A DNA stretch of 60,652 nucleotides from Candidatus Saelkia tenebricola (lineage in GTDB: Bacteria > Omnitrophota > Gorgyraeia > Kaelpiales > Kaelpiaceae), in contig JAVCDA010000021.1 in NCBI GenBank assembly GCA_030765145.1, forward strand, positions 1 through 60,652, read 5' to 3'. The translations under genes and the position numbers were made by a program. The notes under the pieces were generated by a model. It saw nothing but the letters and a program-made list of their open reading frames with translations. It was not told the origin of the DNA and ran no database searches. This document shows, in pieces, positions 3,125-47,613 of the stretch. Position 1 is the first letter of the stretch. Every line of letters starts with the position of its first letter.

Positions 3125-3246
3125 AAATGGAAATGTATCCCCACTGATTTGTAAAACAAATCAAACATGTGGGGATAATTCGCCCAGGTAATTTACATTC
3201 ATCCTGGAAATCAGGATTCTGTAAATCAGGGGGCTCATTAGGAGGT
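3125..3246 (+). repeat. Structured leader element, copy A (unassigned)
   Basis: Hairpin atccccac/tgatttgt-aaa-acaaatca/gtggggat, second hairpin atcctg/caggat inside tttaca/tgtaaa, ends gctcattaggaggt; homologous to 47524-47613. Confidence 0.65.
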
Positions 3247-3252
3247 GAGAGA

Positions 3253-3570
3253 ATGATTGTTACTAATATCGATTCAGTTCCTGGTAAAAGAATTGTTGAA
3301 CATTTTGGTATTGTTCAAGGCAGTACTGTTCGAGCTCGGCATGTAGGCGCTGATTTAGCTGCTAGTCTTAAGAACTTGGTTGGCGGAGAATTAAAAGGCT
3401 ATACAAAATTATTGGAAGATGCCCGAGCAGAATCTTTAGGAAGGCTTATTCAGCAGGCTCAGCAATTGGGAGCTAATGCGATTATTAATATCCGATTTGC
3501 AACAGCTGCAGTGGCTCAAGGAGCTGCAGAGTTGATGGCTTACGGAACTGCTGTGCGGGTAGAAGAATAA
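3253..3570 (+). CDS. YbjQ/UPF0145 family protein
   Basis: LKNLVGGELKGYT, GANAIINIRF, AYGTAV motifs; GGAGG SD before ATG 3253. Confidence 0.92.
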   Translation: MIVTNIDSVPGKRIVEHFGIVQGSTVRARHVGADLAASLKNLVGGELKGYTKLLEDARAESLGRLIQQAQQLGANAIINIRFATAAVAQGAAELMAYGTAVRVEE

Positions 3571-3580
3571 AGGAGGGTCT

Positions 3581-4042
3581 ATGGATGCTCTGATTTATTT
3601 TATATTATTTATTTTTGTAGGATATATTTCAGGAACAATAATTGAAAAGAAACATTATCTTGATATTGAAGTAAGAGAAAAAAAATATTTAAATTTGCCC
3701 GCAATCAGTTCTAAAAATATAGAAGATGAAAGCCGGATTTTATCTGCCAATTTAGTTAGCGGTAGTGTTGTTATTTCACTTGATTATTTCAAGCGTTTTC
3801 TTGCCGGCCTGCGTAATGTCGTTGGTGGTAGAATTCATAGCTATGAAACTCTCTTGGACAGGTCTCGTCGGGAAGCTGTTCTAAGAATGAAGGAAAATGC
3901 CAGCAGTATGAATGCCGATATGATTTTAAATATCAGATTCCAAACCTTGGGAGTTGGACAAAAAGCAAATAAAAAAGGTAATATCGGTTGCTTTGAAGTC
4001 GTAGCATATGGAACAGCAGTGAAACTAAAACCCGGAACATGA
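3581..4042 (+). CDS. YbjQ/UPF0145 family protein with N-terminal TM anchor
   Basis: Hydrophobic N-terminus; LRNVVGGRIHSYETLLDRSRREAVLRMK and AYGTAV. Confidence 0.88.
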   Translation: MDALIYFILFIFVGYISGTIIEKKHYLDIEVREKKYLNLPAISSKNIEDESRILSANLVSGSVVISLDYFKRFLAGLRNVVGGRIHSYETLLDRSRREAVLRMKENASSMNADMILNIRFQTLGVGQKANKKGNIGCFEVVAYGTAVKLKPGT

Positions 4043-4881
4043 GGTTTACTCCTCGCTTACCACAAGATAACGTAAACGTTTCTAAAACATCAGATTTAAG
4101 AGAATTTTTTTGGCTTTTGGGAATTATCTTGGCTGTTCTGGTGTTAGTTTATCTATTCTTAGGATTTGCGCTGGATGTTGTAGTGGATAGAATTTCACCC
4201 AAGATGGAAAGAGAAATAGGGGTTGTCTTTAATAAGATGTATAAAATTAAAGATAACGAAATTTCACCCCTTGAGGAAAGCATACAAAAATTACTCGATA
4301 GCTTAGTTGAAAAGGCACCTGCTTTAAATATGGATTATGAGTTTAAGGTGCGGGTAGTTGAAAATAATGATTTTAATGCTCTGGCTTTACCGGGAGGAAA
4401 TATTGTGATTTTTTCCGGCTTGATTAAAGAAATTAATTCCCAGAATGAATTAGCTATGGTTCTATCACATGAACTGGGCCATTTTGCACATAAAGATCAC
4501 TTGAGAAGGTTAGGGCGGAGATTAGTATTGGTTGTTATTTCTAGTGTTTTATTCGGGGAGAGGAGTTCAGTTGCACAGTTTATGGAACGAACATTAATAA
4601 CCGCAGATCTTAAATCTTCACGCCAGCAGGAGGTAGTAGCTGACAAGTTTGCTTTAGATTTGTTAGATAAAAAGTATGGACATGTTGCAGGAGGTAGGGA
4701 ATTGTTTCAGCTAATGAAAAAGAAGGGAAATTTACCTATGTTTTTTCAATATTTTTCTACACATCCAGCTCCTGAAGATAGGTTGAATATAATGATGGAG
4801 GAGATAATAATAAATGGCTATTTGGTGAAAGAAACAATTCCTCTTGATCCGATTTATAGAGATCAAACAGTAGTAGATTGA
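4039..4881 (+). CDS. M48 family zinc metallopeptidase, membrane-anchored
   Basis: NALALPGG, HELGH (HExxH), QEVVAD, STHP motifs; ATGA overlap with the upstream gene. Confidence 0.92.
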   Translation: MRFTPRLPQDNVNVSKTSDLREFFWLLGIILAVLVLVYLFLGFALDVVVDRISPKMEREIGVVFNKMYKIKDNEISPLEESIQKLLDSLVEKAPALNMDYEFKVRVVENNDFNALALPGGNIVIFSGLIKEINSQNELAMVLSHELGHFAHKDHLRRLGRRLVLVVISSVLFGERSSVAQFMERTLITADLKSSRQQEVVADKFALDLLDKKYGHVAGGRELFQLMKKKGNLPMFFQYFSTHPAPEDRLNIMMEEIIINGYLVKETIPLDPIYRDQTVVD

Positions 4882-4904
4882 TACTTGGATAATTACAATC
4901 TGCA

Positions 4905-4933
4905 TTGACATATTAAATCTCAACGTTTACAAT
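4905..4933 (+). promoter_or_regulatory. Sigma70-type promoter of lysS
   Basis: TTGACA (4905-4910), 17-bp spacer, TACAAT (4928-4933). Confidence 0.7.
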
Positions 4934-4945
4934 TCAAAGAACAAA

Positions 4946-6370
4946 ATGAAAGACGAATTCAGAGAACATAAGTTGGAGAAACTTAATAAGTTAAGGGAGA
5001 AAGGTGTAAATCCCTATCCTTATCGCTATTTACCACATGAGGCTATTTCTTCCTGTATCGATAACTGGAAAGATAGAAGGGGAGTTAAGATTGCAGGGCG
5101 GGTTATGGCGTTTCGGGAGCACGGTAAGAGCATATTTTTTGATATTAAGGATTCAAGTGGGCGGATCCAAGTATATATTAAGCAGGATATAATCGGTGAG
5201 GATGAGTTTTTGATGTTCAAAGAATGTATTGATATCGGAGATATTTTGGGTGTTGAAGGCGAGACTTTTAAAACCAGAACCGAAGAACCTACTGTTTTGG
5301 CCAAAACATATAAAGTGCTTTCTAAATCTTTACTGCCTTTGCCTGAGAAATGGCATGGTTTAAAAGATGTGGAAACAAGACACAGGAAACGTTATCTGGA
5401 TTTAATAATGAATGAAAATGTTAAAGAAATTTTTGTTTTGAGAAGTAAAATTACTAATTTAATTCGCAAGTTTTTAGGTGATAAAGGTTTTATAGAAGTT
5501 GAAACTCCGATGCTTCATAATGTGGCAGGCGGGGCAGCTGGGGCGCCTTTTGCAACACATTTGGAAGCATATGATTTGGACCTTTACTTAAGAATTGCAC
5601 CTGAGTTGTATCTTAAGAGACTCTTAGTAGGCGGATTTGAAAAAGTGTATGAAATAAACAGGAGTTTTAGAAACGAAGGAGTTTCAACTCGGCATAATCC
5701 TGAATTTACAATGCTGGAGCTTTACTGGGCATATGCTGATTATGAAGATATTATGAAATTAACTGAAGAGTTGTTTACATATTTAGCTTATGAGATAAAA
5801 GGTTCCACTGAATTAGAATACCAAGGCAAGAAAATAAATCTTGCTTCTCCCTGGGAAAGATTGAGTTTTACTGATATTTTAGGCAAAAAGAATCTAACAA
5901 TAGATGTGCTTCGTGAAATCATGGAGTCAAAGCTTGGTAAAAAACTTGATAAACTTTCCAGGTCTCAGACTCTTAAATTGTGTGAAGACTATATTGAGAA
6001 TCAACTGGGGAATGAGCCGATTTTTGTAACCGATCATTTAAAAGATATTTCACCCCTTGCAAAATCTAAGAAAGAAAACTCTGATCTTGTTGAGAGGTTT
6101 GAGCTTTTTATATCGGGAATGGAAATAGCTAATGCATACAGCGAGCTTAATGATCCGATTGAGCAGAAAAAGAGATTTCAAGCTCAAACTGGTGAGGAAA
6201 AAGAGCATGTAGATCTCGATTTCGTAGAAGCTTTGGAATACGGTATGCCGCCGGCAGGGGGGTTGGGCATAGGGATAGACAGGTTGGTTATGCTTTTTGC
6301 TGATGCTTCTTCAATCAGGGAAGTTCTTCTATTCCCTCTCCTAAAACCTGAAGTTTGTGATGAGATTTGA
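4946..6370 (+). CDS. lysS: Lysyl-tRNA synthetase, class II
   Basis: PLPEKWHGLKD, LRIAPELYLKRL, FRNEG...HNPEFTMLE, YGMPPAGGLGIGIDRL. Confidence 0.98.
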   Translation: MKDEFREHKLEKLNKLREKGVNPYPYRYLPHEAISSCIDNWKDRRGVKIAGRVMAFREHGKSIFFDIKDSSGRIQVYIKQDIIGEDEFLMFKECIDIGDILGVEGETFKTRTEEPTVLAKTYKVLSKSLLPLPEKWHGLKDVETRHRKRYLDLIMNENVKEIFVLRSKITNLIRKFLGDKGFIEVETPMLHNVAGGAAGAPFATHLEAYDLDLYLRIAPELYLKRLLVGGFEKVYEINRSFRNEGVSTRHNPEFTMLELYWAYADYEDIMKLTEELFTYLAYEIKGSTELEYQGKKINLASPWERLSFTDILGKKNLTIDVLREIMESKLGKKLDKLSRSQTLKLCEDYIENQLGNEPIFVTDHLKDISPLAKSKKENSDLVERFELFISGMEIANAYSELNDPIEQKKRFQAQTGEEKEHVDLDFVEALEYGMPPAGGLGIGIDRLVMLFADASSIREVLLFPLLKPEVCDEI

Positions 6371-7535
6371 GTTTTGGTTAGCTAAAAAATACCTCAGTAG
6401 GAAAGAAGCAAAATTCTTAAAATTAATCTCTGTAATTACAGTTCTAGGAGTAGCTATTGGGGTTATGACTCTCTTAGTTGTGATAGCTGTAATGAATGGG
6501 TTTGATAAAGAATTGGAAGAGAAAATTTTAGGCATTAATTCGGATCTTTTAATAAAATCTGAACCTGTTTTATACAATTATGAAGAAGTAGTAACTAAGC
6601 TTGATTCATTGGATGAAATTATGTTTTTCTCACCTGTTGTTGTCGGGAATGGTAGCTTAGTTAAAAATGGTTTTCTGGAAAATATTTATATTAAAGGTAT
6701 AGATTTAAAACAAGAGGTAAAAACTACAAATTTAGAGAAGTACTTAATACATAAATTGGATAATATCAACTCAAATGGTATAGTCATTGGTAAAGTTATG
6801 GCAGAGAAATTTGATTTAATATTAGGTTCAACAGTTGAAGTTTTAATGCCGTTTCAATTCGAGAGTTTCCCGTTTGTAGTGGAAGGGATATTTGAGTCAG
6901 GTATGTATGAATATGATGCCTCCTTGGTATATATAAATTTAAATAGTGCTAAAGATATTTTCTCAATATCCGGGGTAACGTCGCTGGAAATCAAAATTAA
7001 GAATCCTTATAAAGCAGATGTTCTAAAAAAGGAAATTCAGGATATTCTGGGAGTGCCTTTTTATGTTTTAAGCTGGATAGATATGAACAAAAATCTTTTT
7101 CAAGCTTTGAAGTTAGAGAAAACTGCAATGTTCATTATTTTATGTTTAATAGTGCTTGTCGCGTCTTTTAATATTGCAAGTGTCCTTATTATGTCGGTAT
7201 TGGGAAAAATAAAGGATATTGGGATTATGAGAGCAATAGGTGCCCGGGCAAAAGATATAAGGCGTGTTTTTATTATCCAAGGGATGTTAATAGGATTTAC
7301 CGGGATTCTGTTGGGAACTGCTTTAGGAGGAGCGTTAATATATATTATAGACAACTATAAAATAATAAAGCTCCCTTCTGATATTTATTACATTGATGCA
7401 TTACCTGTTGCCCCATCTATGATTGATTTTGTCTTAATTGTTTCATCGGCACTTCTGATAACATTTATCTCAACTTTATATCCTGCAATAAAGGCAGCGA
7501 AGTTTGATCCTGTCGTAGCCTTGAGGTACGAATGA
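6357..7535 (+). CDS. lolE: Lipoprotein-releasing ABC permease LolC/E
   Basis: LGVAIGV...AVMNGF, LVASFNI, DIGIMRAIGA, YPAIKAAKFDPVVALRYE. Confidence 0.9.
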   Translation: MMRFEFWLAKKYLSRKEAKFLKLISVITVLGVAIGVMTLLVVIAVMNGFDKELEEKILGINSDLLIKSEPVLYNYEEVVTKLDSLDEIMFFSPVVVGNGSLVKNGFLENIYIKGIDLKQEVKTTNLEKYLIHKLDNINSNGIVIGKVMAEKFDLILGSTVEVLMPFQFESFPFVVEGIFESGMYEYDASLVYINLNSAKDIFSISGVTSLEIKIKNPYKADVLKKEIQDILGVPFYVLSWIDMNKNLFQALKLEKTAMFIILCLIVLVASFNIASVLIMSVLGKIKDIGIMRAIGARAKDIRRVFIIQGMLIGFTGILLGTALGGALIYIIDNYKIIKLPSDIYYIDALPVAPSMIDFVLIVSSALLITFISTLYPAIKAAKFDPVVALRYE

Positions 7536-8221
7536 TAGTAAAACTAGATAGCATTAATAAATATTATCGAGTTGGAAACAGTACTCTCCATGTGTTAAAA
7601 GATATTTTTTTAGATATTGAACAAGGAGAATTATTAGCTATAGAAGGTCCTTCTGGAGCGGGTAAATCTACTTTACTACACTTAATAGGCGGTTTGGATA
7701 GACCTAGCGAGGGGAAGGTTTATTTGGAAGAAGAGGATATTTATAGCTTTAATGACAGTAGTATTTCTCGGATTAGAAATGAAAAGGTTGGTTTTGTATT
7801 TCAGTTCTATTATTTGATATCCGAGTTAACTGTATTAGAAAATGTTGCCTTGCCTCTGCTTATTAGAGGCGAATCTAAGAAAAAAGCTCTGGATTTGGCG
7901 AAAGGGGTGCTTGATTTTTTAAAGCTTACCGAAAGAGTATCTCATTATCCTAATCAGGTATCCGGAGGTGAACAGCAGAGAACTTCTTTGGCTAGGGCAA
8001 TTGTTACAGAGCCTAAAATTTTACTTTGTGATGAGCCAACAGGAAATTTAGATTCTCAAATGGGAAAAGAAGTGTTAAAATTACTCCAGGATATTAATAA
8101 AGAACGAGGTACTACAATTGTGGTTGTTACCCATGATAGAGATATAGCATCATGGATGCAGCGAAGAGCTTACATGAAAGACGGAATGTTGGTGAATATA
8201 AAATGTAACAAAGGAGGATAA
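7532..8221 (+). CDS. lolD: Lipoprotein-releasing ABC ATPase LolD
   Basis: Walker A GPSGAGKS, GFVFQF, SGGEQQR, DEPTGNLD; adjacent to lolC/E. Confidence 0.9.
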   Translation: MIVKLDSINKYYRVGNSTLHVLKDIFLDIEQGELLAIEGPSGAGKSTLLHLIGGLDRPSEGKVYLEEEDIYSFNDSSISRIRNEKVGFVFQFYYLISELTVLENVALPLLIRGESKKKALDLAKGVLDFLKLTERVSHYPNQVSGGEQQRTSLARAIVTEPKILLCDEPTGNLDSQMGKEVLKLLQDINKERGTTIVVVTHDRDIASWMQRRAYMKDGMLVNIKCNKGG

Positions 8222-8222
8222 T

Positions 8223-9092
8223 ATGAAAGTTTACCTCAATGGTGAACTTGTAGATGAAAAAGATGCAAAGGTATCTGTTTTTGACCATGGGTATCTTTAT
8301 GGAGATGGTGTTTTTGAAGGAATAAGGGTCTATAACGGTCTGGTTTTTCGCCTTCAGCAGCACCTGGATCGTCTTTATCGTTCTGCTCATACGATTATGC
8401 TTAATGTCTCTATGAGTAAAGATGAAATGAAAGAAGCTGTAATAAAAACTCTGAAAGCAAATAGCTTAAAAGACGCTTATATTAGATTAATTATTTCCCG
8501 TGGTGAAGGGGATTTGGGATTAGACCCTAGAAAGTGTAAGCATCCAAATATTGTTATTATAACGGATAAGATTGCACTTTACCCTAAAGAGATTTATGAA
8601 AAGGGTCTTGAGATAATTACTGTGCCTACCAGGCGTAATATTCCGGAAGGGGTGAATCCTCAGATTAAATCCTTGAATTACCTCAATAATATTATGGCTA
8701 AAATGGATGCCTTGAGCTGCGGTTATGAAGAAGCTATTATGCTTAATAATGAGGGGTATGTAGTTGAATGCACAGGTGATAATATCTTTATTTACGATGA
8801 GGGTAAACTTTATACTCCATCTGTTCATTTGGGGATTTTAGACGGTATCACGAGAGATGTGGTAATGAAATTAGCAAAAGAACGGGGTATTGAAGTTTCT
8901 GAAGAGATAATATCCCGTCATGATGTTTATAATGCTGGAGAGTGTTTTCTTACAGGAACTGCTGCTGAAATAGTACCTGTAGTTAAAGTTGATGGTAGAA
9001 ATGTCGGGAGTGGTGTTCCTGGAGAAGTTACTCTTCAGCTGATAGAAGATTTTAAAGATTTAACAGATACAGATGGTGTGCCTGTCTCTTAG
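8223..9092 (+). CDS. ilvE: Branched-chain amino acid aminotransferase (class IV)
   Basis: DHGYLYGDGVFEGIR, KSLNYLNN (PLP Lys), LDGITR, FLTGTAAE. Confidence 0.93.
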   Translation: MKVYLNGELVDEKDAKVSVFDHGYLYGDGVFEGIRVYNGLVFRLQQHLDRLYRSAHTIMLNVSMSKDEMKEAVIKTLKANSLKDAYIRLIISRGEGDLGLDPRKCKHPNIVIITDKIALYPKEIYEKGLEIITVPTRRNIPEGVNPQIKSLNYLNNIMAKMDALSCGYEEAIMLNNEGYVVECTGDNIFIYDEGKLYTPSVHLGILDGITRDVVMKLAKERGIEVSEEIISRHDVYNAGECFLTGTAAEIVPVVKVDGRNVGSGVPGEVTLQLIEDFKDLTDTDGVPVS

Positions 9093-9106
9093 GCGGAGGT
9101 AATAAT

Positions 9107-9613
9107 ATGGTTTGTGATATTTGCGGGCAGACGGAAGCTACCGTACATTTGACAGAAATAATAAACGGTAAGGTTACAGAATTGCATTTATGTGAAGAAT
9201 GCGCTCGGGAAAAAGGTACTCAGATGGAACAGCATTTTGGTATATCCGATCTTCTGGCGGGCTTAGCAGATTTAAGTCCCGATGTGGAAATGAAACAGGA
9301 TGTTGTTTTAAAATGTAATAATTGCGGGATGAGTTACAAAGATTTTAAAAAAATAGGCAAATTTGGCTGCAGTCAATGTTATGAATCTTTCAGACAGCAT
9401 GTACCGGCTTTATTAAAAAGAGTGCATGGTTCTACTAAATACGTAGGAAAGGAACCTAATGCTGGAGAATATAAAGTAGTTAGGGATGAACTGCAGGAGT
9501 TAAGAAGTAAATTGCAAATTGCTATCGAAAAAGAAGAATACGAAAAAGCAGCTCAAATAAGAGATGAAATTCGTGAAATAGAAAGAGAGCGTGCTAAAGA
9601 TGAAGAAAAGTAA
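9107..9613 (+). CDS. mcsA: Protein-arginine kinase activator McsA
   Basis: Four CxxC motifs plus C-terminal UVR domain (EEYEKAAQIRDEI); upstream of mcsB-clpC. Confidence 0.95.
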   Translation: MVCDICGQTEATVHLTEIINGKVTELHLCEECAREKGTQMEQHFGISDLLAGLADLSPDVEMKQDVVLKCNNCGMSYKDFKKIGKFGCSQCYESFRQHVPALLKRVHGSTKYVGKEPNAGEYKVVRDELQELRSKLQIAIEKEEYEKAAQIRDEIREIERERAKDEEK

Positions 9614-10652
9614 TGTTGATATTTTATTAAATCAGCTGGGAGCATGGCTTCAGGGAACAGGTGAATATTCGGATATTGTTATTTCAAGCCGGATTAGATT
9701 TGCCAGAAATTTAAAGGGTTTTCCTTTCTATCACTGGGCAAGTGATAAAAAGAGAGAAGAAGTTTATTTTAAAGTCAAGGAAGCCATTGGAAACATTCCG
9801 GATTTCCAAAATGGAATTTGGATGGATATGGTAGAGTTAAATGAATTAGACAGGTATTTTTTACTTGAGAGGCATTTGATAAGCAAAGAGTTAACTGAAA
9901 AAGGTGCCCATAAGGCGTCTCTTATCGGGGACCGTGAAATTGTTTCTGTTATGGTGAACGAAGAGGACCATATCAGACTTCAGGTTTTAGAATCCGGGCT
10001 TTCTTTGCTTCAGGCAATAGATATAGCAAGAAGAATTGATAATGAACTAGCTCAAAAGTTAGATTATGCATTTTCTTATGAATGGGGGTATCTTACTGCT
10101 TGTCCCACTAATACAGGAACAGGCTTAAGGGCATCTGTAATGTTGCATTTGCCATTACTTGTTTTAACGAAACAAATAACAAATGTTATCAATACAATTG
10201 CAAAACTAAGTTTTACAACCCGTGGGTTTTATGGTGAAGGAACCGAGGCCAGCGGGAATTTCTTTCAAATTTCAAATCAAGTGACTTTAGGTAGGTCTGA
10301 GGAAGAAATTGTGGAAAATCTGCTTAAAGTTATATCTCAGGTAATAAATTATGAAAGGTCTGCTCGGGAGAAATTTTATAAACAGGAAAAACTGTCTTTG
10401 GAAGATCAAGTTTTCAGATCATATGGAATGTTGAAAAATTCCCGTGTTGTAACCAGCAAGGAGGCGATTGAACTTCTTTCGAATTTAAGAATGGGTATAG
10501 ATCTAGGTATTATTGATATTGATATAAAGCAGATGAATGAATTATTTCTTTTGATACAACCTGCTCATCTCCAGAAACTGGAGGGGAGGAAGTTGAATTC
10601 TAAGGAAAGGGATATAAAACGAGCAGAACTTATACGCAATAGAATAAAGTAG
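9600..10652 (+). CDS. mcsB: Protein-arginine kinase McsB
   Basis: SSRIRFARN, VNEEDHIRLQ, GYLTACPTNTGTGLRAS, QISNQVTLG. Confidence 0.97.
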   Translation: MKKSNVDILLNQLGAWLQGTGEYSDIVISSRIRFARNLKGFPFYHWASDKKREEVYFKVKEAIGNIPDFQNGIWMDMVELNELDRYFLLERHLISKELTEKGAHKASLIGDREIVSVMVNEEDHIRLQVLESGLSLLQAIDIARRIDNELAQKLDYAFSYEWGYLTACPTNTGTGLRASVMLHLPLLVLTKQITNVINTIAKLSFTTRGFYGEGTEASGNFFQISNQVTLGRSEEEIVENLLKVISQVINYERSAREKFYKQEKLSLEDQVFRSYGMLKNSRVVTSKEAIELLSNLRMGIDLGIIDIDIKQMNELFLLIQPAHLQKLEGRKLNSKERDIKRAELIRNRIK

Positions 10653-10661
10653 GAGGGTGTT

Positions 10662-13109: not shown

Positions 13110-13162
13110 TTCTGCAGATTTAAATAGCTATATGAGTAGAGTTAATTTGTTGTAAAAAGCAT

Positions 13163-13199
13163 GCTTCTGATTATAAGTAAATCAGAAGCCAAATTTTTT
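13163..13199 (+). terminator. Putative intrinsic terminator (or operator dyad) after clpC
   Basis: Perfect 10-bp stem gcttctgatt/aatcagaagc with 7-nt loop; T-run follows after a 4-nt gap. Confidence 0.5.
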
Positions 13200-13203
13200 C
13201 TCA

Positions 13204-14877
13204 ATGCGTATATCAAAATTAAGAAAGAGGCGTTGGGAGTTATATTTAATTATTGCAACTATATTGCTTGTTTTTGCAGTGTTGTGTTTTTTTTCTTCTT
13301 TTTATTGTTCTGATTTTTTGGCGAATAAAATTTTAAATAGTTATTTAAAATCAGAAGATGTGCACTTGTCTGCTAAAAGATGCGGGTTTTCTTTTAAAAA
13401 TGGTATTATATTTAGAAGGATTTCTTTGACTAATAAAGAAAGTAGTATTTCTGCTCAAAGTTTTTCTTTAAATAAAGACGGAGAATCAACAGTTGTAATG
13501 ATAGAAGGTGCGGCTATTGATATTGCTTTACTTGGAGGCAAAATGTTTTATGAAGAAGATAAAATATCTAAAGCAGGTTCTGTAAAAATCGGTTTGAAAA
13601 ATGTTGAATTAAAATCTAGAGACAGTAGTTTGTTTAAAATAGAGAAAGGATTTATTCTCTTAGGTAAAAACGAGGTGAATTGGGATATGCGGATGAATTA
13701 CAAATTTATTAGCATAGATTCTAAAGGATTTGTATCCTTATCCAATAAAACTTGTTTGTTTTTCTTTGATGCTGATTCTTTGAGTGTTTCTTTGATGGGA
13801 GAGTATGATTTTAATACACAAGTTATAAATAGCAAGTTGTTTTTTAAAGGTAAGCCCTATGTTCTTAGCACTGATTTGTTGTTTGATCGGGGAAGTATTG
13901 CTTTGAAAGATATTATATTTGAGAAATTTCTAATACCAGGTCCGATAAATGCAACAGTTTTAGGTGGCATAGCATCTAACTGGTCAATTCAAGGAACGGA
14001 GAATGTATCCCGAGGTGATTTTGGATTTGAGGATAAAGAGAATCATCTAAAATTTTATCTTAGGGTGTTAAAAGCACATTTGGGTAATTATGAATTAATT
14101 ACGAATCTTTATCTAGATTATGTAAAAACTGAGAGAGCATTAAGCTTCCATTCTCGGGGTACGGTATTAAATAATCAACCTTTTCCGGAGTTGGATTTTG
14201 CGATAAAATTTTTAGACGAAGGTGTTTTATTGGAAAATTTTAATTATCAAGGTGGGTTAAGTCTTAGTGGTTATTGGGATTATGGAGTAGTTTTAACTGG
14301 GAAATGCAAATTTGAAAATTTCGATATTTATAAACTTATTAAACTCATTACGCCTCTTTATTCTCGTTATTTTAATGTAGCAAGCATAAATGGTGAAGCA
14401 AGTTATTTTTCTTATAATGCTACAAAGTTAGCTAAATTATCGTTAGAGCTTTCTGAGGGAAGAATTTGGGATGTTGTTTTTGATAGTGGTAGAATCGAGT
14501 TAATAGGTAATTCCAAAATATTGGAATTTGTTGATTCTGAACTGGTGATTGACGGGGAGTCTTTGATGTTCGAAGGGTATATGGATATTTCTAAGTTTCC
14601 TGATGCGGATATGTGGAAGGATGTTTTCTTGGTCCCTGGTTCATCTTCTTTGTTGTGGAATAAGGCGGATTTTGAGGATAGTTTTGGAGGAAGGAAGCTG
14701 TCATTAGGAGCAAATTTAAAAGAGAATGTTAAATTGGATTATAATGTAGAATTTTCTGATCAAGAAAATTACAATAAAAACGAGATTTCTTTGAAAATAA
14801 TAGGTAAACAGAATTTGAAATTGCGCTTAAGAGAAGATGAAGAGATAATGGGTATAGAAAAAACAATCGAATTTTAA
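13204..14877 (+). CDS. Hypothetical envelope protein, probably AsmA/TamB-like beta-rich
   Basis: Single N-terminal TM, long alternating hydrophobic beta-strand pattern, C-terminal GIEKTIEF; co-oriented with mlaEFD. The fold assignment is inferred. Confidence 0.5.
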   Translation: MRISKLRKRRWELYLIIATILLVFAVLCFFSSFYCSDFLANKILNSYLKSEDVHLSAKRCGFSFKNGIIFRRISLTNKESSISAQSFSLNKDGESTVVMIEGAAIDIALLGGKMFYEEDKISKAGSVKIGLKNVELKSRDSSLFKIEKGFILLGKNEVNWDMRMNYKFISIDSKGFVSLSNKTCLFFFDADSLSVSLMGEYDFNTQVINSKLFFKGKPYVLSTDLLFDRGSIALKDIIFEKFLIPGPINATVLGGIASNWSIQGTENVSRGDFGFEDKENHLKFYLRVLKAHLGNYELITNLYLDYVKTERALSFHSRGTVLNNQPFPELDFAIKFLDEGVLLENFNYQGGLSLSGYWDYGVVLTGKCKFENFDIYKLIKLITPLYSRYFNVASINGEASYFSYNATKLAKLSLELSEGRIWDVVFDSGRIELIGNSKILEFVDSELVIDGESLMFEGYMDISKFPDADMWKDVFLVPGSSSLLWNKADFEDSFGGRKLSLGANLKENVKLDYNVEFSDQENYNKNEISLKIIGKQNLKLRLREDEEIMGIEKTIEF

Positions 14878-14884
14878 TGCTGTT

Positions 14885-16398: not shown

Positions 16399-17181
16399 AT
16401 GGAGTATTGGAGAAATAGTGAGTGGAGATTAGGACTTTTCATTGCTTGCGGCCTGGTTCTTTTCGGAGCTTTAGTTTTTACAATAAGTAATTTGACATTT
16501 TTCGATAGAGGCTATGAGGTGAGAGTTCTTTTTAGATTTGCCAGTGGTGTTGAGGAAGGAGCGCCGGTAAGGCTTGCTGGGGTAAAAGTTGGAGAAGTTA
16601 AAAATGTAAAAATAGTTTATGATTTTGAAGATGAATATCCACTTGTTGAAGTACATTTAAATATTCAAGAAAATGTCCGTATCAGGCAAGACGCCAGTAT
16701 TTTAATAAGCACTTTGGGTCTTCTGGGTGAAAAATATGTTGAAATTTTACCGGGGACTAAAGAAAAGCCTTTAATTGAGAGTAGAGATATTGTAATAGGA
16801 TATGATACTGTTCCTCTTGCGAAATTGTCTGATTTAGGATATCAAATTGCTTTAAAATTAGATCAAACGATAGATGTTTTAAGGGAAATATTTGTCGAAG
16901 AAGAACAGAAGAAAGATATCAAAATTACTTTGAATAATATTAAAGATTTAAGCGCCAATTTAAATAATTTGGTTCTTGAAACAGATGTGGTTATGAAAAG
17001 AATCAATAGAGGCGAGGGTACGCTTGGACAGTTGATTAGTGAGGAAGAATTATATGATGATTTTCTGGCGTTTGTAAAAGATATTAAGAGAAATCCCTGG
17101 AAACTACTACGCAAAACCAAAAGTTCTAATCAAGATGATGTAGATGAAAATGGGAACAAAGGATATCTTTATTCTCAATAG
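16399..17181 (+). CDS. mlaD: MlaD/MCE family protein
   Basis: TM plus GAPVRLAGVKVGEV, GLLGEKYVEI, helical tail with GEGTLGQL and IKRNPW. Confidence 0.93.
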   Translation: MEYWRNSEWRLGLFIACGLVLFGALVFTISNLTFFDRGYEVRVLFRFASGVEEGAPVRLAGVKVGEVKNVKIVYDFEDEYPLVEVHLNIQENVRIRQDASILISTLGLLGEKYVEILPGTKEKPLIESRDIVIGYDTVPLAKLSDLGYQIALKLDQTIDVLREIFVEEEQKKDIKITLNNIKDLSANLNNLVLETDVVMKRINRGEGTLGQLISEEELYDDFLAFVKDIKRNPWKLLRKTKSSNQDDVDENGNKGYLYSQ

Positions 17182-37252: not shown

Positions 37253-37278
37253 TAATAGGCAGTTGTTTAGAGAAAATT

Positions 37279-37311: not shown

Positions 37312-37346
37312 CAAAGTTATTAAATAAAGGTAATTAGTATGTCTGT

Positions 37347-42028: not shown

Positions 42029-42035
42029 TGTATTT

Positions 42036-42476
42036 TTAAGTATATAAAATTTTTTTAAGTTTTTTCAAGATTTGTAAATAATTCTTTCTTTCCTGCTCTG
42101 TTAATTTTCCGAAAATTTCTGCTATTGTTTGTTGTCGTTGAGAGTGTATTTCCTTAGCCGTATTTTTCCCCTTAAGAGTATTTTTAATATGTATCACTCG
42201 GCGGTCATTTTCATCATAGATACGCTTGACCATTTTCATGCGAGCGAGCCTATCTATTAATCCTGTTGCAGCAGGTAGGGAGATGTTCAATTCACAAGCT
42301 ATGTCTTTCATTTTTAGCAATTTATCAGTGCTTAAGAGATCTAAGGCTAAATATTGAGGCATAGTTATCTCGCCTCGCTTTAGAGCATCAGTCTGTTTTT
42401 TCAGCACGCCTCTTATTATGTACGGCAATATATTTGTTATTTCCCCAGAGAAAGATGCAATAGATTGTTTTGTCAT
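42036..42476 (-). CDS. MarR family transcriptional regulator
   Basis: ITMPQY, wHTH SLPAATGLIDRL, DENDRR..I..T.KG. Confidence 0.93.
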   Translation of the reverse strand: MTKQSIASFSGEITNILPYIIRGVLKKQTDALKRGEITMPQYLALDLLSTDKLLKMKDIACELNISLPAATGLIDRLARMKMVKRIYDENDRRVIHIKNTLKGKNTAKEIHSQRQQTIAEIFGKLTEQERKNYLQILKKLKKILYT

Positions 42477-42490
42477 GGTTATCCTCGTTA

Positions 42491-42527
42491 ATAATTAATA
42501 TTATTAATAGTTAACTATATTAATTAT
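42491..42527. promoter_or_regulatory. Putative MarR operator
   Basis: Perfect 12-bp palindrome atagttaactat (42507-42518) plus outer IR ataattaata/tattaattat, overlapping the -10 and start site of the marR promoter. Confidence 0.6.
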
Positions 42528-42551
42528 ATCGTAGATATTGATGTTTGTCAA
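42523..42551 (-). promoter_or_regulatory. Consensus sigma70 promoter of marR-tolC-RND
   Basis: Minus strand TTGACA (42551-42546), 17-bp spacer, TATAAT (42528-42523). Confidence 0.8.
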
Positions 42552-42683
42552 GGTCTGTCATGTGGAATTAATCGATGTTTCTTATGTTATAAGTGAGAAT
42601 AGGATGATAAATTCCAGGTTTGTTTTTGCCATTCTGTGTTATAATAATGCCCAGTAATAATTATAAAAATAAGGAGATGACGG

Positions 42684-43247
42684 TTGCAGGGATATATTTT
42701 TTTAAGGTTTTTATTTTTGGGAGTGCCTGTTTTATGTTATTACGATAAAGGGATTGCTCTTTTAGCATTAGTTGTTTTATTTGTTTTGTTTTCAGTATTT
42801 GAATTCTCAAGGTTCCTAGGTAAATCATTGGATGAAAAAATTAGGAAAAAATATTTCTTTTTTTTGGTTCCTATTGGCGAAAAAAGAATAGCCAAATTAT
42901 TATACCTAACAGCTGCTCTTTTTATCGTTGTTAATTTTTTTGAAAAGGATGTTGCGATTTTTTCAATCAGCGTTGCTTTAATCTATGGAGTGGTGTCTTT
43001 AATATTTAATTCATTTGCAAAAGTAAAAATTAAAAACAATACTTTGGAAGGAATAATAGCTGGTATTGGTTTTGCTTATATTACGGGTATCTATCTGGGG
43101 AATGATTTAAATTTGGGGCAGAATGTAATAATTTCATCTGTCATAGCTGCTCCTCTAACCGAGCTTATTATTAGTTGTTTGGATGAAAATTTTAGCGTAC
43201 CTTTTTTTGTTGCTGTGGCAGCACAGTTTGTTAAAAACTCATTTTAA
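42684..43247 (+). CDS. Membrane protein of the dolichol/phytol kinase (CTP-dependent) family, divergent
   Basis: Multi-TM; NTLEG and LDENFSVP resemble the KSxEG and DNxxxP motifs; TTG start 7 nt after AAGGAG. Confidence 0.6.
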   Translation: MQGYIFLRFLFLGVPVLCYYDKGIALLALVVLFVLFSVFEFSRFLGKSLDEKIRKKYFFFLVPIGEKRIAKLLYLTAALFIVVNFFEKDVAIFSISVALIYGVVSLIFNSFAKVKIKNNTLEGIIAGIGFAYITGIYLGNDLNLGQNVIISSVIAAPLTELIISCLDENFSVPFFVAVAAQFVKNSF

Positions 43248-43277
43248 ATTTTATATTGAGAGGTATAAAATCTTTTT

Positions 43278-43730
43278 ATGGCAAAATTTAAACAAGAAAT
43301 ATCCAGTGGCGGTGTAATTTATAAATTAAATAGCTCATCTGTTGAAATCATCCTAATTAGACGGGTTACTAAAAGAGGTATGCATGCATGGTGTCTTCCT
43401 AAAGGTAAAGTCGAGCAAGGAGAGAGTTTGGAGGTTACTGCGTTACGAGAGGTCAAAGAGGAAACAGGTGTGAGTGGAAAAATAGAAAAAGAACTGGGGA
43501 GTATTAACTATTGGTTTTACGGTGCCGAAGATAAGTTAAAAATAAATAAAACAGTTCATTTTTATTTGATGAAATATATGTCCGGGAATCTGGAATTGTA
43601 CGATGATGAAGTTGAAGAGGTTAGATGGTTTGTAATAGATGAAGCAAGATCTATAGCAAGTTATAAATCAGAAAAAGAAATGATTACGAAGGCAATGGAG
43701 GTTTTGATCCCGGTTCCAGAAGATAAATAG
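43278..43730 (+). CDS. NUDIX hydrolase
   Basis: Nudix box LPKGKVEQGESLEVTALREVKEETG. Confidence 0.95.
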   Translation: MAKFKQEISSGGVIYKLNSSSVEIILIRRVTKRGMHAWCLPKGKVEQGESLEVTALREVKEETGVSGKIEKELGSINYWFYGAEDKLKINKTVHFYLMKYMSGNLELYDDEVEEVRWFVIDEARSIASYKSEKEMITKAMEVLIPVPEDK

Positions 43731-43733
43731 AAA

Positions 43734-44306
43734 ATGAAGATATTTTGGTCAATTTTAGTATTTTTAGCAGTTGTTTTAAGAATATCCGATGCGACAAGTG
43801 AAGTTTTAATGATAGTTGCAAAAAACGGGTTTCGTGATGAAGAGGTTTTTATTACCAAAGAGATTTTAGAAAACAATGGCTATATGATTGATGTAGCATC
43901 AAGTTCTCGGGGTATCTGTTTAGGGATGCTTGGCAAAAGTATAAATGCAGAAATTTCAATAGAGGAGATCAATGTTTCTGATTATAGTGTTGTTGTATTT
44001 ATAGGCGGAATTGGTGCTCGAGAATTCTTTGATAGCACATTAGCTCATGGGATTGTGAAAAAGGCATATCAAGAGAACAAGATCATAGCAGCGATATGTA
44101 TTGCGCCTGTAATTTTGGCGCAAGCTGGCATTTTAGAAGATAAACACGCTACTGTTTTAAATAGCTTTAAGGCTCAGATTCAACAGTATGGAGCAGTTTA
44201 TACCGGTAACGGAGTGGAAGTAGATGGTAACATTATTACAGCAGATGGACCGGGCGCTACTGAAGGATTTGCTTATAGGATATTGGATGTTTTAAAAAAG
44301 AAATAG
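43734..44306 (+). CDS. DJ-1/PfpI family protein
   Basis: FRDEE, FIGGIG, AAICIAP (nucleophile Cys), IITADGP. Confidence 0.92.
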   Translation: MKIFWSILVFLAVVLRISDATSEVLMIVAKNGFRDEEVFITKEILENNGYMIDVASSSRGICLGMLGKSINAEISIEEINVSDYSVVVFIGGIGAREFFDSTLAHGIVKKAYQENKIIAAICIAPVILAQAGILEDKHATVLNSFKAQIQQYGAVYTGNGVEVDGNIITADGPGATEGFAYRILDVLKKK

Positions 44307-44329
44307 CTTGCAAATATCGGAAGCGAACT

Positions 44330-44737
44330 ATGGAATCCAAAAAGATTGTGTTACATTTTCCCCGGAGCTTGGTGGATAAGCCGATTATTTGCAAACTAAT
44401 TAGAGAATTTGATTTAGATTTTAATATTTTGAAAGCTTCTGTTACCCCCAATGAAGAAGGGCTTTTAGTTTTAGAGCTCATAGGCGAGGATAAAGATTTA
44501 AAAAAAGCAGTAGAATATTTAAAGAGTAATGGAGTAACGGTCCAGTCTTTGAGTAAAGATATTATTCGTAATGATAAAAAATGTACTCATTGTGGGGTTT
44601 GTGTCGTATATTGTCCAACCGGAGCTCTTTTTGTAGATAATGAAACTCAGGAAGTTCTTTTTCAGGAAGATAAGTGTATAGGTTGTGAAATATGTGTCAA
44701 TATCTGCCCTCTTAGGGCTATGGAAGTTCATTTTTAA
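44330..44737 (+). CDS. NIL domain plus 2x[4Fe-4S] ferredoxin
   Basis: FNILKA (NIL) and two CxxCxxCxxxCP motifs. Confidence 0.92.
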   Translation: MESKKIVLHFPRSLVDKPIICKLIREFDLDFNILKASVTPNEEGLLVLELIGEDKDLKKAVEYLKSNGVTVQSLSKDIIRNDKKCTHCGVCVVYCPTGALFVDNETQEVLFQEDKCIGCEICVNICPLRAMEVHF

Positions 44738-45456
44738 TGCAAGAGAGGTTTTATAGAAAGTGGGTTCAAGAGAATAATTTAATAGGTTTTGAGGTCAAAG
44801 TTAAAGAAACGGATTTATTTATCAGGGCAGATAAGAATTTAGCAAATGAAGCACGTGTTTTAGTAGTAAAATATAGAAATATTTTAAAAGAGTATCTTCG
44901 TGATAATCCCGTGTTTCTTAAATCCTTAGTTCCTGTTGAGATAAAATCTACAGCGCCTATTTTTGTGCAGGAAATGGTTAATGCTTCTTGTAAAGCAGGT
45001 GTGGGGCCTATGGCATCGGTTGCAGGAGTGATAGCAGAGTTTGTGGGTAAGGAATTACTGACTTTCAGTAAAGAGATATTGGTTGAAAATGGAGGAGATA
45101 TATTCTTAAAAACATTGCAAAAAAGAACAGTGGCCATTTATGCAGGAAAATCTCCTTTATCAGGTAAAATAGGTATTGAAATTACTCCGGAAATGGGAGT
45201 GGTTGGAGTTTGCACATCATCTGGAAAAGTAGGCCATTCTTTGAGTTTTGGTTGTGCAGATTCAGTTACTGTTATATCAAAATCAGCTATTTTAGCAGAT
45301 GCTTGGGCGACAAGCCTTGCTAATCGAGTTAAGAGTTCAAGTGAAATTGAAGAAGTGCTTAAATATGCTTCCGAAATAAAAGGGATCAGAGGGGTAGTCA
45401 TAATTGTAGATGAAAAAATAGGTTTTACCGGAAAAATAAGAATATTAAAAGTCTAA
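44737..45456 (+). CDS. UPF0280 / ApbE-superfamily protein
   Basis: VGPMASVAG, VENGGDI, CTSSGKVGHSLSFG.AD, ADAWATSLAN. Confidence 0.92.
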   Translation: MQERFYRKWVQENNLIGFEVKVKETDLFIRADKNLANEARVLVVKYRNILKEYLRDNPVFLKSLVPVEIKSTAPIFVQEMVNASCKAGVGPMASVAGVIAEFVGKELLTFSKEILVENGGDIFLKTLQKRTVAIYAGKSPLSGKIGIEITPEMGVVGVCTSSGKVGHSLSFGCADSVTVISKSAILADAWATSLANRVKSSSEIEEVLKYASEIKGIRGVVIIVDEKIGFTGKIRILKV

Positions 45457-45499
45457 ATTAAGATATCTTATTGATGGTTATTTGGTTATGGTAATTCGC

Positions 45500-45528
45500 T
45501 TGACAGTATTTTTGGTATATGGTATTTT
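45500..45528 (+). promoter_or_regulatory. Sigma70-type promoter of the HU gene
   Basis: TTGACA (45500-05), 17-bp spacer, TG-extended TATTTT (45523-28). Confidence 0.6.
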
Positions 45529-45563
45529 GACTTTAGATCGTTTAATAGATAAGGAGGTTGATA

Positions 45564-45836
45564 ATGACTAAAAAAGAAATTGTTAATGTTGTGGTGTCTA
45601 AGACGGGATATAAGCAGACAGAAGTTAAGAAAATAGTTCAACTCACATTAAATGCGATTTCAGATACATTGGTTAATGGCAAAAATATTGAATTGAGAAA
45701 TTTTGGTGTTTTTAAAGTAAAAACCAGAAAACCTAGACAGGGCCGAAATCCGAAAACAGGAGAAGCGGTTCCGGTTCCCCAAAGAAGAGTTGTGGTTTTT
45801 AAGCCAGGGTTGGAATTGAAGTTAAAGTTAAGGTAA
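45564..45836 (+). CDS. HU/IHF family nucleoid-associated protein
   Basis: MTKKE, ELRNFGVF, GRNPKTGE, FKPG; AAGGAGG SD. Confidence 0.95.
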   Translation: MTKKEIVNVVVSKTGYKQTEVKKIVQLTLNAISDTLVNGKNIELRNFGVFKVKTRKPRQGRNPKTGEAVPVPQRRVVVFKPGLELKLKLR

Positions 45837-45922
45837 GTCTCTATTTTAACTAGGGATAAAAATATTTTCTTCTTCTTTCGTGCCCCTGGTCATGTGTGGA
45901 GAAGAAAGAGGGAAGGTGAGGC

Positions 45923-46129
45923 ATGAGTAGTAAAGGTAAAGTAAAGTGGTTTTCCAACCAGAAAGGTTTTGGATTTATTACCCCAGAGGAAGGTGCTGAT
46001 GTTTTTGTGCATTTTTCTGCTGTCCAAACTGATGGTTATCGTAGCCTTGGAGAAGGTGATGATGTTGAATTTGACATTGTAGAAACTCCTAAAGGTCCAC
46101 AAGCTGCAAACGTGAAAAAAATTAGCTAA
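45923..46129 (+). CDS. cspA: Cold-shock protein
   Basis: GKVKWF, KGFGFI (RNP1), VFVHF (RNP2), KGPQAANV. Confidence 0.96.
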
Positions 46130-46145
46130 AATTGTCTGGAAAACC

Positions 46146-46186
46146 AAAAGCCCGTCTTTTTACATGTTTAAGAAGGCGGGCATTTT
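46146..46186 (+). terminator. Intrinsic terminator after the cold-shock gene
   Basis: gcccgtcttttta / taagaaggcgggc stem flanked by aaaa and atttt. Confidence 0.75.
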
Positions 46187-46256
46187 AAATAGTAAAGATA
46201 GAGGTTCCTAACGTATAATAATCGTTGTAAGCTGATAATTTAAGGTCAGATTATTT

Positions 46257-47510
46257 ATGAAATATCAAAAATTGAGAGGAACTGAGGATATAATTTCTCC
46301 TCAAATTGAATTATGGCAGGAAATAGAAAGTATATCCCGTGATTTATTTGAAGTATCAGGTTATAAGGAAATAAAAACTCCGATAGTTGAGTTTTTGCAG
46401 CTTTTTCAGCGTAGTATCGGAAAAAATACTGATATTGTAGAGAAAGAAATTTTTCAATTTCAGGATAGATCCGAAAGAAAAATTGCGCTTCGTCCTGAAG
46501 CCACTGCTTCTATAGTTCGTGCTTATTTAGAATGCGGGCTATATCAAAATCCAGGATTGACAAAATTATATTATATAGGTCCTATGTTTCGCGCAGAAAG
46601 GCCTCAAAAGGGGCGGAAGAGACAATTTTATCAAGTTGGCATTGAAGCTATAGGGTCTTTGAATCCTGAGATAGATGCTGAAGTTATATGGTTAGTTAAA
46701 AAGCTACTTGATAATTTGGGTGTTGATGATTTTAGAATTGAAATAAACAGTTTGGGTTGTGATGATGATAAAATCAAAATTGTGGATTATTTAAAAGGTG
46801 AAATTAGTAAAAATTTAGATCACTTTTGCCAGAATTGCCAGAATAGATTTGAAAGAAATGTTTTAAGAGTTTTGGATTGTAAAAATCCGGATTGTAAAAG
46901 TTGTTTGAAAAATCTCAAAATAGATATTAAAACGGTGATTTGTAAAAATTGCATGCAACATTATAACGAAGTCAAATCGTTATTAACTGTATTAGGAGTT
47001 CAATATGAAGAAAATAAATATTTAGTTCGGGGGCTTGATTATTACACCAGAACAGTGTTTGAAGTCTTAAATTATAATTTGGGGGCTCAAAATGTGATTT
47101 GTGCAGGTGGAAGATATGATAATCTCGTTGAAGAAATGGGTGGTAAACCTACAGGAGCTGTGGGGTTTGCTTTAGGAATGGAAAGAATTGCCATGCTTCT
47201 TGAGGATAGAAGTAAAAAAAAGATAGAATTGGATATTTTTTTAATTCTTCAGGACAGAATGTTTTTGAAAGAAGCATTAAAAGAGTTAATAAATTTAAGA
47301 GAAAATGGAATTTATGCTGAGATGGATTATCAGAGTAGGTCTTTAAAATCTCAGATGAGATTGGCTAATGAAAAAAAAGCGAGATATGTTTTAATTTTAG
47401 GACAAAAAGAGTGGGAAAAAGGTGAATTCTGTTTAAAAGATATGAAAACAGGGAGTCAAATCAATATAAAAAAAGAAAAATTGTTAGAAGTAATTAATCG
47501 AATTATATAG
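46257..47510 (+). CDS. hisS: Histidyl-tRNA synthetase
   Basis: LRPEATA, MFRAERPQKGR.RQFYQ, LVRGLDYYT, AGGRYD, GFALGMER. Confidence 0.98.
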   Translation: MKYQKLRGTEDIISPQIELWQEIESISRDLFEVSGYKEIKTPIVEFLQLFQRSIGKNTDIVEKEIFQFQDRSERKIALRPEATASIVRAYLECGLYQNPGLTKLYYIGPMFRAERPQKGRKRQFYQVGIEAIGSLNPEIDAEVIWLVKKLLDNLGVDDFRIEINSLGCDDDKIKIVDYLKGEISKNLDHFCQNCQNRFERNVLRVLDCKNPDCKSCLKNLKIDIKTVICKNCMQHYNEVKSLLTVLGVQYEENKYLVRGLDYYTRTVFEVLNYNLGAQNVICAGGRYDNLVEEMGGKPTGAVGFALGMERIAMLLEDRSKKKIELDIFLILQDRMFLKEALKELINLRENGIYAEMDYQSRSLKSQMRLANEKKARYVLILGQKEWEKGEFCLKDMKTGSQINIKKEKLLEVINRII

Positions 47511-47523
47511 TTTTTTATGGGGA

Positions 47524-47613
47524 TAATGGGATGTATCCTTATATGTTTGATTTGATTTGGGAATCAACAGGGATAATTTGTAGACGGCTGATGCCTTATG
47601 CTCATTAGGAGGT
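47524..47613 (+). repeat. Structured leader element, copy B (unassigned)
   Basis: taatggg...ctcatta closing stem, tatcctt...agggata hairpin, ends gctcattaggaggt; core is 32/42 identical to the reverse complement of 3136-3177. Confidence 0.65.

Follow-up and report, generated by a model that had tools for sequence, protein, structure and literature searches.

Why should two unrelated genes some 44 kb apart, ybjQ and aspS of Candidatus Saelkia tenebricola (Omnitrophota), carry leaders that share their flanks, with the hairpin between those flanks turned around? Both leaders lie in the window analyzed here, a stretch of 60,652 nucleotides (nt) of contig JAVCDA010000021.1 (positions 1 to 60,652). 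We find that the two leaders are members of one dispersed, non-coding and hairpin-forming repeat family, each unit of which contains two hairpins. Our preferred reading, to which we assign a probability of roughly 60%, is that of a small DNA repeat family, patchily distributed in Omnitrophota, which has inserted before genes against pre-existing ribosome-binding sites (RBS).

In a full unit, P1, a variable hairpin with CCC(C)/GGG(G) as its closing pairs, is followed in turn by a 5′ block, a second hairpin P2 and a 3′ block, and all features of the two copies lie on the + strand of the window. In copy A, a directly read left flank AAATGGAAATG (3125–3135) precedes P1 (3136–3177; TATCCCCAC-TGATTTG-TAAAA-CAAATCA-AACAT-GTGGGGATA), which has an AACAT bulge on its 3′ arm, the commoner orientation. 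The 5′ block TAATTCGC (3176–3183), conserved in the alignment A1 described below, leads into a divergent variant of P2 closed by GCCC/GGGC (3182–3234, delimited by folding and by the covariance model R1), and the 3′ block GCTCATTA (3233–3240), again conserved in the alignments, forms the right end of the repeat. The Shine-Dalgarno (SD) sequence GGAGGT of ybjQ follows at 3241–3246, taken as the gene's own by analogy with four junctions for which empty sites exist, and then ybjQ itself (3253–3570; YbjQ_1, PF01906, profile E 1.9e-36). Copy B is located between hisS (46257–47510), whose final codons differ from the hisS end seen in relatives where the gene extends over the aspS start, and aspS (47618–49024, TTG start). 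It comprises a directly read left flank TAATGGGATG (47524–47533), P1 (47534–47575) with its inner segment inverted compared with copy A and ATGTT on the 5′ arm, a 5′ block variant TAATTTGT located by alignment (47574–47581), a short form of P2, GTAGACGGCTGATGCCTTATGC (47580–47601), and the same 3′ block (47600–47607), next to the SD GGAGGT of aspS (47608–47613), which is already there in element-free relatives.

These positions bear out the 42-bp cores, bounded by TATCC and GGATA, that the sequence-only reading had delineated at 3136–3177 and 47534–47575. The shared 14-mer GCTCATTAGGAGGT that it had reported is exact, and the window holds it nowhere but at 3233 and 47600 (+ strand in both cases); it is, however, a composite of GCTCATTA and the gene's own SD. 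A three-way junction closed just before the SD, which had been proposed for both leaders, is seen in neither minimum-energy fold. The fold of copy A (−43.1 kcal/mol, z −4.2) has two hairpins in succession and, in addition, a weak, local one that covers the SD; that of copy B is no more stable than shuffles (z −0.16, equaled by 85 of 200). Promoter and terminator scans returned zero sites at either copy.

A family of two-hairpin units

Further copies were collected by BLAST and motif scans over all 88 contigs of the source genome (G000; 1.63 Mb, 98% complete). From alignment A1, which holds 24 units chosen with a fold filter, we built R1 on eight basal pairs, and model-based alignments took in 59 further R1 matches beyond A1. 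R1 locates copy A at 3173–3240 (E 9.5e-10) and copy B at 47571–47607 (E 2.4e-4), both units having been among its seeds. There are 28 matches at E ≤ 1 in the source genome; 19 of 31 genomes of relatives have matches at E ≤ 0.01, with 0 to 52 copies each, and 74 of 151 sampled genomes of the phylum do so at E ≤ 0.001, in both classes. R1 matches are often found at contig ends, as is typical of repeats. A relaxed expression for the 3′ block plus SD gave 26 matches in the source genome versus 4 for a reversed control. A strict pattern run on public species-representative genomes found at least 124 stretches; 125 distinct public units are among the matches listed, and of the 80 record titles among them 63 name Omnitrophota or Omnitrophica, while Planctomycetota, Planctomycetia or Planctomycetales account for 12; the five that remain are single titles for Syntrophomonadaceae, Ratteibacteria and Neomarinimicrobiota together with unnamed bacteria.

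The distribution is patchy, as six of nine genomes of the same family have no copy, including those of G031 and G191 (both 97% complete) and G211 (95%). An exact 13-mer, with 0–1 matches each in 400 genomes of the phylum, had first suggested an element specific to one genome, an idea overturned by the R1 search. Rfam 15 returned no match at gathering thresholds over the whole window; E-value scans of copies A and B gave only E 0.51–9.2, far below gathering, and 12 loci with canonical units had no match at E ≤ 1. The literature searched, supplements not covered, holds no description of repeats of this type in Omnitrophota. The suggestion of an unrecognized dispersed element, similar to miniature transposable elements with inverted repeats (MITEs) or repetitive extragenic palindromes (REPs), is thus upheld by the additional copies in this genome and across the phylum and by the lack of an Rfam family for the window, the two copies or the canonical loci.

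The 5′ block has the consensus (T/C/A)AATTCGC and the 3′ block GCTCATT(A/G/T). The blocks pair with each other through 4 bp, a 2×2 loop and then further pairs. In the commonest form of P2, the base consists of 4 bp, (T/C/A)AAT with ATT(A/G/T), followed by the 2×2 loop TC/TC; the middle of 4 bp, GCNC with GNGC, and a 1–2-nt bulge on the 5′ arm; and the top of 10 bp ending in CTTAYG/CRTAAG, with a loop of 12–16 nt. The terminal pair in the 125 listed public units is TA in 65, AT in 33 and CG in 13, and unpaired in 14; since it varies in this way, the two blocks do pair. P2 can be replaced by quite different hairpins, such as the divergent one in copy A and the short one in copy B. Units stand alone or in short tandem arrays, in which neighboring blocks overlap as GCTCGTAATTCGC, and the short P2 unit of copy B recurs in tandem on contigs C20, C12 and C55 of the source genome. 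A left flank similar to those of the window, AATG-N-AAATGTAT, precedes P1 in the ybjQ ortholog of G402, a genome of another genus, and in the rpsL leader of the source genome (C36). We dropped a reading of TAATTTG as a Bacteroidetes-type −7 box (TAnnTTTG), because strong SDs are in use in the genome and this block has the 3′ block as its pairing partner.

The 3′ block also invites comparison with the transcription antitermination signals of ribosomal RNA (rrn) operons: GCUCAUUA would be a boxA bound by NusB/NusE, and the hairpin a boxB. It resembles E. coli rrn boxA GCUCUUUA, and ribosomal-protein genes are among those preceded by units. In two Omnitrophota genomes (G362 and G321), however, the boxA found in the rrn leaders and in the spacer is of the GTTCTTTGAYAA type rather than GCTCATTA, and a change in the final base of the block goes with a change in the base that it pairs with. 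The source genome gave no match for 16S. We regard a Nus site as extremely improbable.

Position at genes and filled versus empty junctions

All but one of the 28 units in the source genome stand upstream of a gene and point in its direction, and 20 of these 27 are directly followed by an SD; the start codon comes 6–15 nt after the unit in 19 cases, and the twentieth (C48) reaches the contig end. The rest of the 27 are six upstream members of arrays and one unit that ends 4 nt before an SD-less start codon. A terminator-like sequence comes after the 28th. The genes downstream of units have no common function, among them aroC, eno, rpsE, rpsL, aspS, gcvH, tatA, thi4, subunits of pyruvate:ferredoxin oxidoreductase (PFOR) and ybjQ. 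The repeat explains the long leader stretches common to unrelated housekeeping genes in Omnitrophota, and guards against calling such leaders riboswitches or the genes co-regulated. Pairing of the SD with an anti-SD-like CUCC in the P2 loop was considered and rejected: by eye, the presence of CUCC does not track a following SD.

Several of these junctions can be compared with empty counterparts. Between rplR and rpsE, the same-family relatives G211, G031 and G191 read gaattttaaAGGAGG, 7 nt, GTG, whereas the source genome contains two units amounting to 160 nt exactly between TAA and AGGAGG, and other units fill the junction in G401, from the same genus, and in G402. At hisS-aspS, hisS of G191 and G031 runs across AAAGGAGGTTTAAATTG into aspS with no element; the source genome has a 107-nt insert and a recoded hisS end, and G401 an array of >330 nt. 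A further version is found on the 4.4-kb contig C48 of the source genome (locus L018), which places another P1 and another P2 against the same GCTCATTAGGAGGTTAAATTG (compare 47400–47625 in the window) and represents either a co-assembled strain variant or a duplicate locus. Three versions of this spacer (C37, C48 and G401) thus have different units at the same junction. The gcvT-gcvH and rpoC-rpsL junctions follow the same filled-versus-empty pattern, the gcvT end being recoded by repeat sequence. In another family, f48, rpsH-rplF is empty in G357 and G412 (3- and 7-nt spacers, no SD) and filled in G318, G411 and G361. Such repeats break Omnitrophota assemblies and recode the C-termini of upstream genes (hisS, gcvT, rpoC).

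Element-free sister genomes already hold AGGAGG or AAGGAG at hisS-aspS, rplR-rpsE, gcvT-gcvH and rpoC-rpsL, and the element stands directly 5′ of this SD. Read at the level of sequence, these comparisons establish insertion relative to the sister genomes beside an SD that was there before. As the SD is present in the empty sites, the repeat appears to supply GCTCATTA only, the SD within the 14-mer being each gene's own. The proposal that the element provides an RBS accordingly fails at the four junctions with empty sites. No empty ybjQ site was found among the genomes examined.

A different placement is seen in G318. In a set of 21 units, made up of the 20 best-scoring loci and one neighboring unit, 18 end 1–2 nt before an SD-less start codon whose frame runs to the end of the locus; two are followed by an SD and one by another unit. 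Part of this flushness follows from gene packing, given the tiny SD-less rpsH-rplF spacers in the empty sites. At 15 of 19 G318 junctions ATTA+R creates a stop codon immediately ahead of the start, a frequency not clearly above composition, and we discarded this as a feature. At loci L039, L056, L084–L103 and L234 of G318, many genes (rplB, rplV, rplF) are apparently SD-less, with A-rich or minimal spacers, which suggests that G318 is an SD-poor lineage within Omnitrophota. A trans-acting factor is suggested by three traits, namely sequence conservation throughout the phylum, a bulge on one arm only and a location flush with start sites, and if this factor acts on RNA it would bear on start-codon choice in SD-poor bacteria. 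P2, conserved and asymmetric, and the paired end blocks might then serve as a recognition module for a conserved host factor and mark translation starts, lying right against the SD in SD-using lineages and taking part in SD-independent start choice or in processing to mRNAs with short leaders in SD-poor ones. If so, the repeat would be a portable, phylum-wide translation-start cassette rather than junk, a proposal that we regard as rather doubtful.

Position also bears on a broader alternative, according to which the unit is a functional cis-acting RNA and its spread secondary. A conserved host factor, be it an RNase or an RNA-binding protein (ribosomal or other), would bind or cleave the conserved, asymmetric P2 in the 5′ untranslated region (UTR), and P2 would set mRNA stability or translation initiation of highly expressed genes. 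The co-directional upstream placement in the source genome and the flush placement in G318 both favor it, and many of the target genes are usually highly expressed (rpsL, rpsE, eno, an elongation factor G-like gene, PFOR subunits, tatA, the V-ATPase K subunit). Sigma-70-like promoters with a common extended TTCCTTGAC(A/G) −35 region can be discerned by eye upstream of the arrays on C20 (∼14130–14170), C55 (∼16500–16540) and C75 (∼9360–9400), putting those units in 5′ UTRs. However, the same genes lack the unit in sister genomes, most of the same-family genomes have none at all, and P2 tolerates replacement by quite different hairpins. The 125 listed public units divide into 49 with an SD no more than 4 nt away, 27 that lack an SD but reach a start codon within 3 nt, and 49 with neither. 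Several units of the latter class have an SD or start slightly further on; others precede terminator-like hairpins or promoters, or adjoin tRNA genes, and one lies antisense inside an intron-bearing tRNA gene.

Some loci of this kind deserve description. Upstream of 16S in L028 (G321:C48) stands a unit with GCTCATTT at its end. After it come an A-run and, next, a pair of promoter-like TTGACA-N17-TATAAT sites that belong to the rRNA operon, which shows that promoters, too, can have a unit directly upstream. In L051 (G252:C93, ∼400–760), the 5′ half of a tRNA gene, where ARAGORN calls no tRNA, is immediately followed by a unit in antisense orientation, and the sequence after the unit (GAGCCAAGC ... 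GGTGCAGAGACTAAGCG ... CACCTAAG) looks like what we take to be a group I intron. L064 and L215 show a similar arrangement, with a tRNA 5′ half next to the unit. In L184 (121–337), a 23-nt copy of the tRNA-Arg 5′ end with one mismatch is found on one side of the unit and the intact tRNA-Arg (262–337) on the other, an arrangement that looks as though the tRNA gene had had its start duplicated or replaced upon insertion.

The flipped P1 hairpin and the composition of the stems

Recomputed over the 42 bp of the core, copy B matches the reverse complement of copy A at 32 positions and copy A on the same strand at 18, as the sequence-only reading had counted. The 10 bounding bases agree in either orientation; among the 32 bases inside them, 8 positions match on the same strand and 22 in the reverse complement (binomial P 6.5e-6), a value reached by 1 of 200,000 shuffles. 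The ybjQ ortholog of G402 has the same flanks as copy A and a P1 that reads TATCCCCAC-ATGTTTGATTTG-CTAAA-CAAATCA-GTGGGGGTA, 38/42 identical to the reverse complement of copy A and 28/42 to copy A itself. Copy B P1 matches this hairpin at 29/42 on the same strand versus 20/42 in the reverse complement and hence has the same orientation. The claim that the core is inverted relative to its flanks is borne out by the inner match and by the recurrence of the inversion between the ybjQ leaders of the two genomes; to judge from these alignments, the inversion is real and took place at an orthologous site.

Could the core be a DNA inversion switch, flipped by a site-specific recombinase to control ybjQ or aspS? 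Both orientations exist, six in that of copy A and two flipped for this P1 subtype in all sequence examined, and they are found at one orthologous locus in two genera. No recombinase was detected among the nine flanking proteins of copies A and B, however, and P1 of copy A is covered by one Logan contig from each of three runs, all in the orientation of the window and with 0–1 differences; at ∼3x depth, and with contigs losing rare variants, these data are too shallow for minor forms. The inversion changes only which arm carries the 5-nt bulge, so that either orientation gives the same hairpin and output would be unchanged. To our knowledge, the ∼24-bp inner segment is too short for known invertase synapses. 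We therefore consider a switch, which the sequence-only reading had listed among its options, very improbable; most likely the flip stems from a replication slip.

Two studies report that template switching between the arms of an inverted repeat homogenizes the arms and inverts the spacer or loop (PMC8604942; PMC8794818). Such switching would account for both the flip and the near-perfect stems. In 71 units (75 were parsed and four dropped by a length or stem filter), stem pairs comprise 1198 Watson-Crick, 27 G-U and 26 A-C pairs; the corresponding counts at pattern-free positions of the 125 listed public units are 1072, 25 and 14 (binomial p 0.11). Stems are ∼97% Watson-Crick. In a selected RNA, G-U pairs are expected far above A-C. 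G-U is hardly commoner than A-C here, so that the stems would be more in keeping with a DNA palindrome, its arms copied from each other and maintained through template switching, than with an RNA under selection. DNA palindromes and template switching can produce compensatory-looking stem changes as well as flipped hairpins; since such changes arise without RNA selection, covariation alone is no proof of a functional RNA.

These counts bear on the cis-acting RNA considered above. The conservation of the blocks, the 2×2 loop and the 5′-arm bulge across the phylum speaks for it, as does the covariation of the terminal pair, whereas the rarity of G-U and the patchy distribution disfavor a cis-regulatory RNA, which the sequence-only reading had named as one possibility. 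Neither a riboswitch-type tie to one functional gene class nor retention at orthologous leaders was seen. We judge a functional RNA module to be unlikely, though still worth keeping in mind.

Mode of spread and relation to known repeats

In the DNA repeat model that we prefer, units have inserted in tiny gaps before genes, pointing the way of the gene and ending flush with a pre-existing RBS, or, in SD-poor lineages, 1–2 nt before the start codon. They may spread and swap modules at the DNA level, by means of a trans-acting enzyme or of recombination anchored on the conserved blocks; the different units at the hisS-aspS junction would reflect module exchange by such block-anchored recombination. 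Template switching within a hairpin during replication would homogenize the arms and invert the part between them. In the mRNA, the units would probably be carried as two hairpins that leave the SD unpaired, and would be tolerated or mildly useful as a stabilizer or insulator rather than acting as a sensor.

Several findings weigh against this model. Filled-versus-empty junctions show no target duplication beyond 1–3 nt (a shared TAA or A), and no terminal inverted repeats span the whole unit. A recent burst in the source genome is ruled against by the nearest-neighbor identities of its P2 units, which average 0.77 within the genome versus 0.80 outside, in a comparison that may have one genome on both sides. 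For selfish repeats it is unusual that blocks, internal loop and one-sided bulge should be conserved in sequence across two classes; such phylum-wide conservation implies a conserved trans-acting factor, and none was found for the units. The covariation of the terminal pair is what a selected RNA helix would show, and the flush position in G318 could mean a role in translation, not compaction alone. Basal pairs form in 96.8% of the cells of A1 versus 86% when shuffled, figures inflated by the fold-filtered choice of units. Finally, no linked transposase has come to light: Y1_Tnp (PF01797) has no match in the source genome despite its 28 units and 98% completeness, and none of six Y1 loci (in G318, G401 and G059; ∼1.5 kb around each) contains an R1 match at E ≤ 1.

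The last two results also count against a more specific scheme, in which an element akin to REPs or palindrome-associated transposable elements (PATEs) is moved as folded single-stranded DNA by a Y1 transposase of the histidine-hydrophobic-histidine (HUH) type (a REP-associated tyrosine transposase (RAYT) or an IS200/IS605-type enzyme) that reads the bulged hairpin. A hairpin that is imperfect, bulged on one side and interrupted by an internal loop has the kind of shape that Y1 enzymes read, as in IS608 and REP-RAYT systems, and Y1_Tnp genes are present in 16 of the 19 genomes with units versus 6 of the 12 without (Fisher p 0.056, kinship ignored). Yet the units have no conserved GTAG or CGTC tag and do not occur in inverted pairs; in the alignments, GTAG is found only in copy B and one unit of C28, where other units have GCAG. 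Mobilization by an HUH enzyme seems improbable to us.

The closest known kinds are Neisseria REP2, the mycobacterial interspersed repetitive unit (MIRU) and REPs with their bacterial interspersed mosaic elements (BIMEs), and the Omnitrophota repeat is a member of none of them. REP2 and the similar Borrelia IR-A/IR-B are described as elements of 120–150 bp with two internal stem-loops, no terminal inverted repeats and tens of copies (PMC3184786; Parkhill 2000, Morelle 2003). They are portrayed there as lying immediately upstream of genes, in gene orientation and as part of the 5′ UTR, REP2 with its own promoter, RBS and ATG (PMC3184786). As far as that account goes, the Omnitrophota unit is similar in its two internal stem-loops and its place immediately upstream of genes, but differs in that the SD pre-exists at four junctions and that copies A and B have no promoter-like site. 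It has no sequence likeness to REP2, and is phylum-wide whereas REP2 is confined to one genus.

MIRUs, according to the same review, are 40–100 bp long, lie between cistrons in operons, are co-transcribed, have filled and empty sites between species and abut genes with their ends (PMC3184786; Supply 1997); tetranucleotide direct repeats and small open reading frames (ORFs) that overlap neighboring genes are also described (PMC3184786). On this description, the Omnitrophota unit shares the intercistronic position and the filled-versus-empty evidence, whereas neither direct repeats nor bridging ORFs were found at its junctions. By eye, the ATG in the left flank of copy A opens ∼6 codons followed by a stop. 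REP/BIME and REPIN elements are described as short, modular extragenic palindromes that form tandem or mosaic arrays and are transcribed with genes (PMC2817692, PMC3116915, PMC3733652). By those accounts, the Omnitrophota units are likewise palindromic and modular, but have no tag, no alternating or inverted pairing and no unit-flanked RAYT-like gene, and they are found at the starts rather than the ends of genes, co-oriented in the source genome. A MITE is not a match either, as the inverted 5′ and 3′ blocks flank P2 only, with P1 outside, and junctions share at most 1–3 bases.

In its fold, the unit is also reminiscent of attC sites, in which conserved, paired end boxes give way to an unpaired central spacer and a second short helix, one arm has extrahelical bases, and the terminal hairpin is variable. 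The RYYYAAC/GTTRRRY boxes of attC are absent, however, the Omnitrophota blocks being TAATTCGC and GCTCATTA, and the units stand before core genes in conserved operons, not behind cassettes. Without these boxes and without an Rfam family, the leaders conform to no riboswitch or attC consensus, as the sequence-only reading had held.

The genomic surroundings of the two copies in the window differ. The neighbors of copy A are secA, lnt, two ybjQ genes and an M48 peptidase, and those of copy B are HU, hisS, aspS and a LysM protein. The region downstream of copy A (3253–4042) contains an adjacent pair of YbjQ_1 (PF01906) genes, the second of which has an N-terminal extension of ∼40 residues, followed by the M48 peptidase gene.

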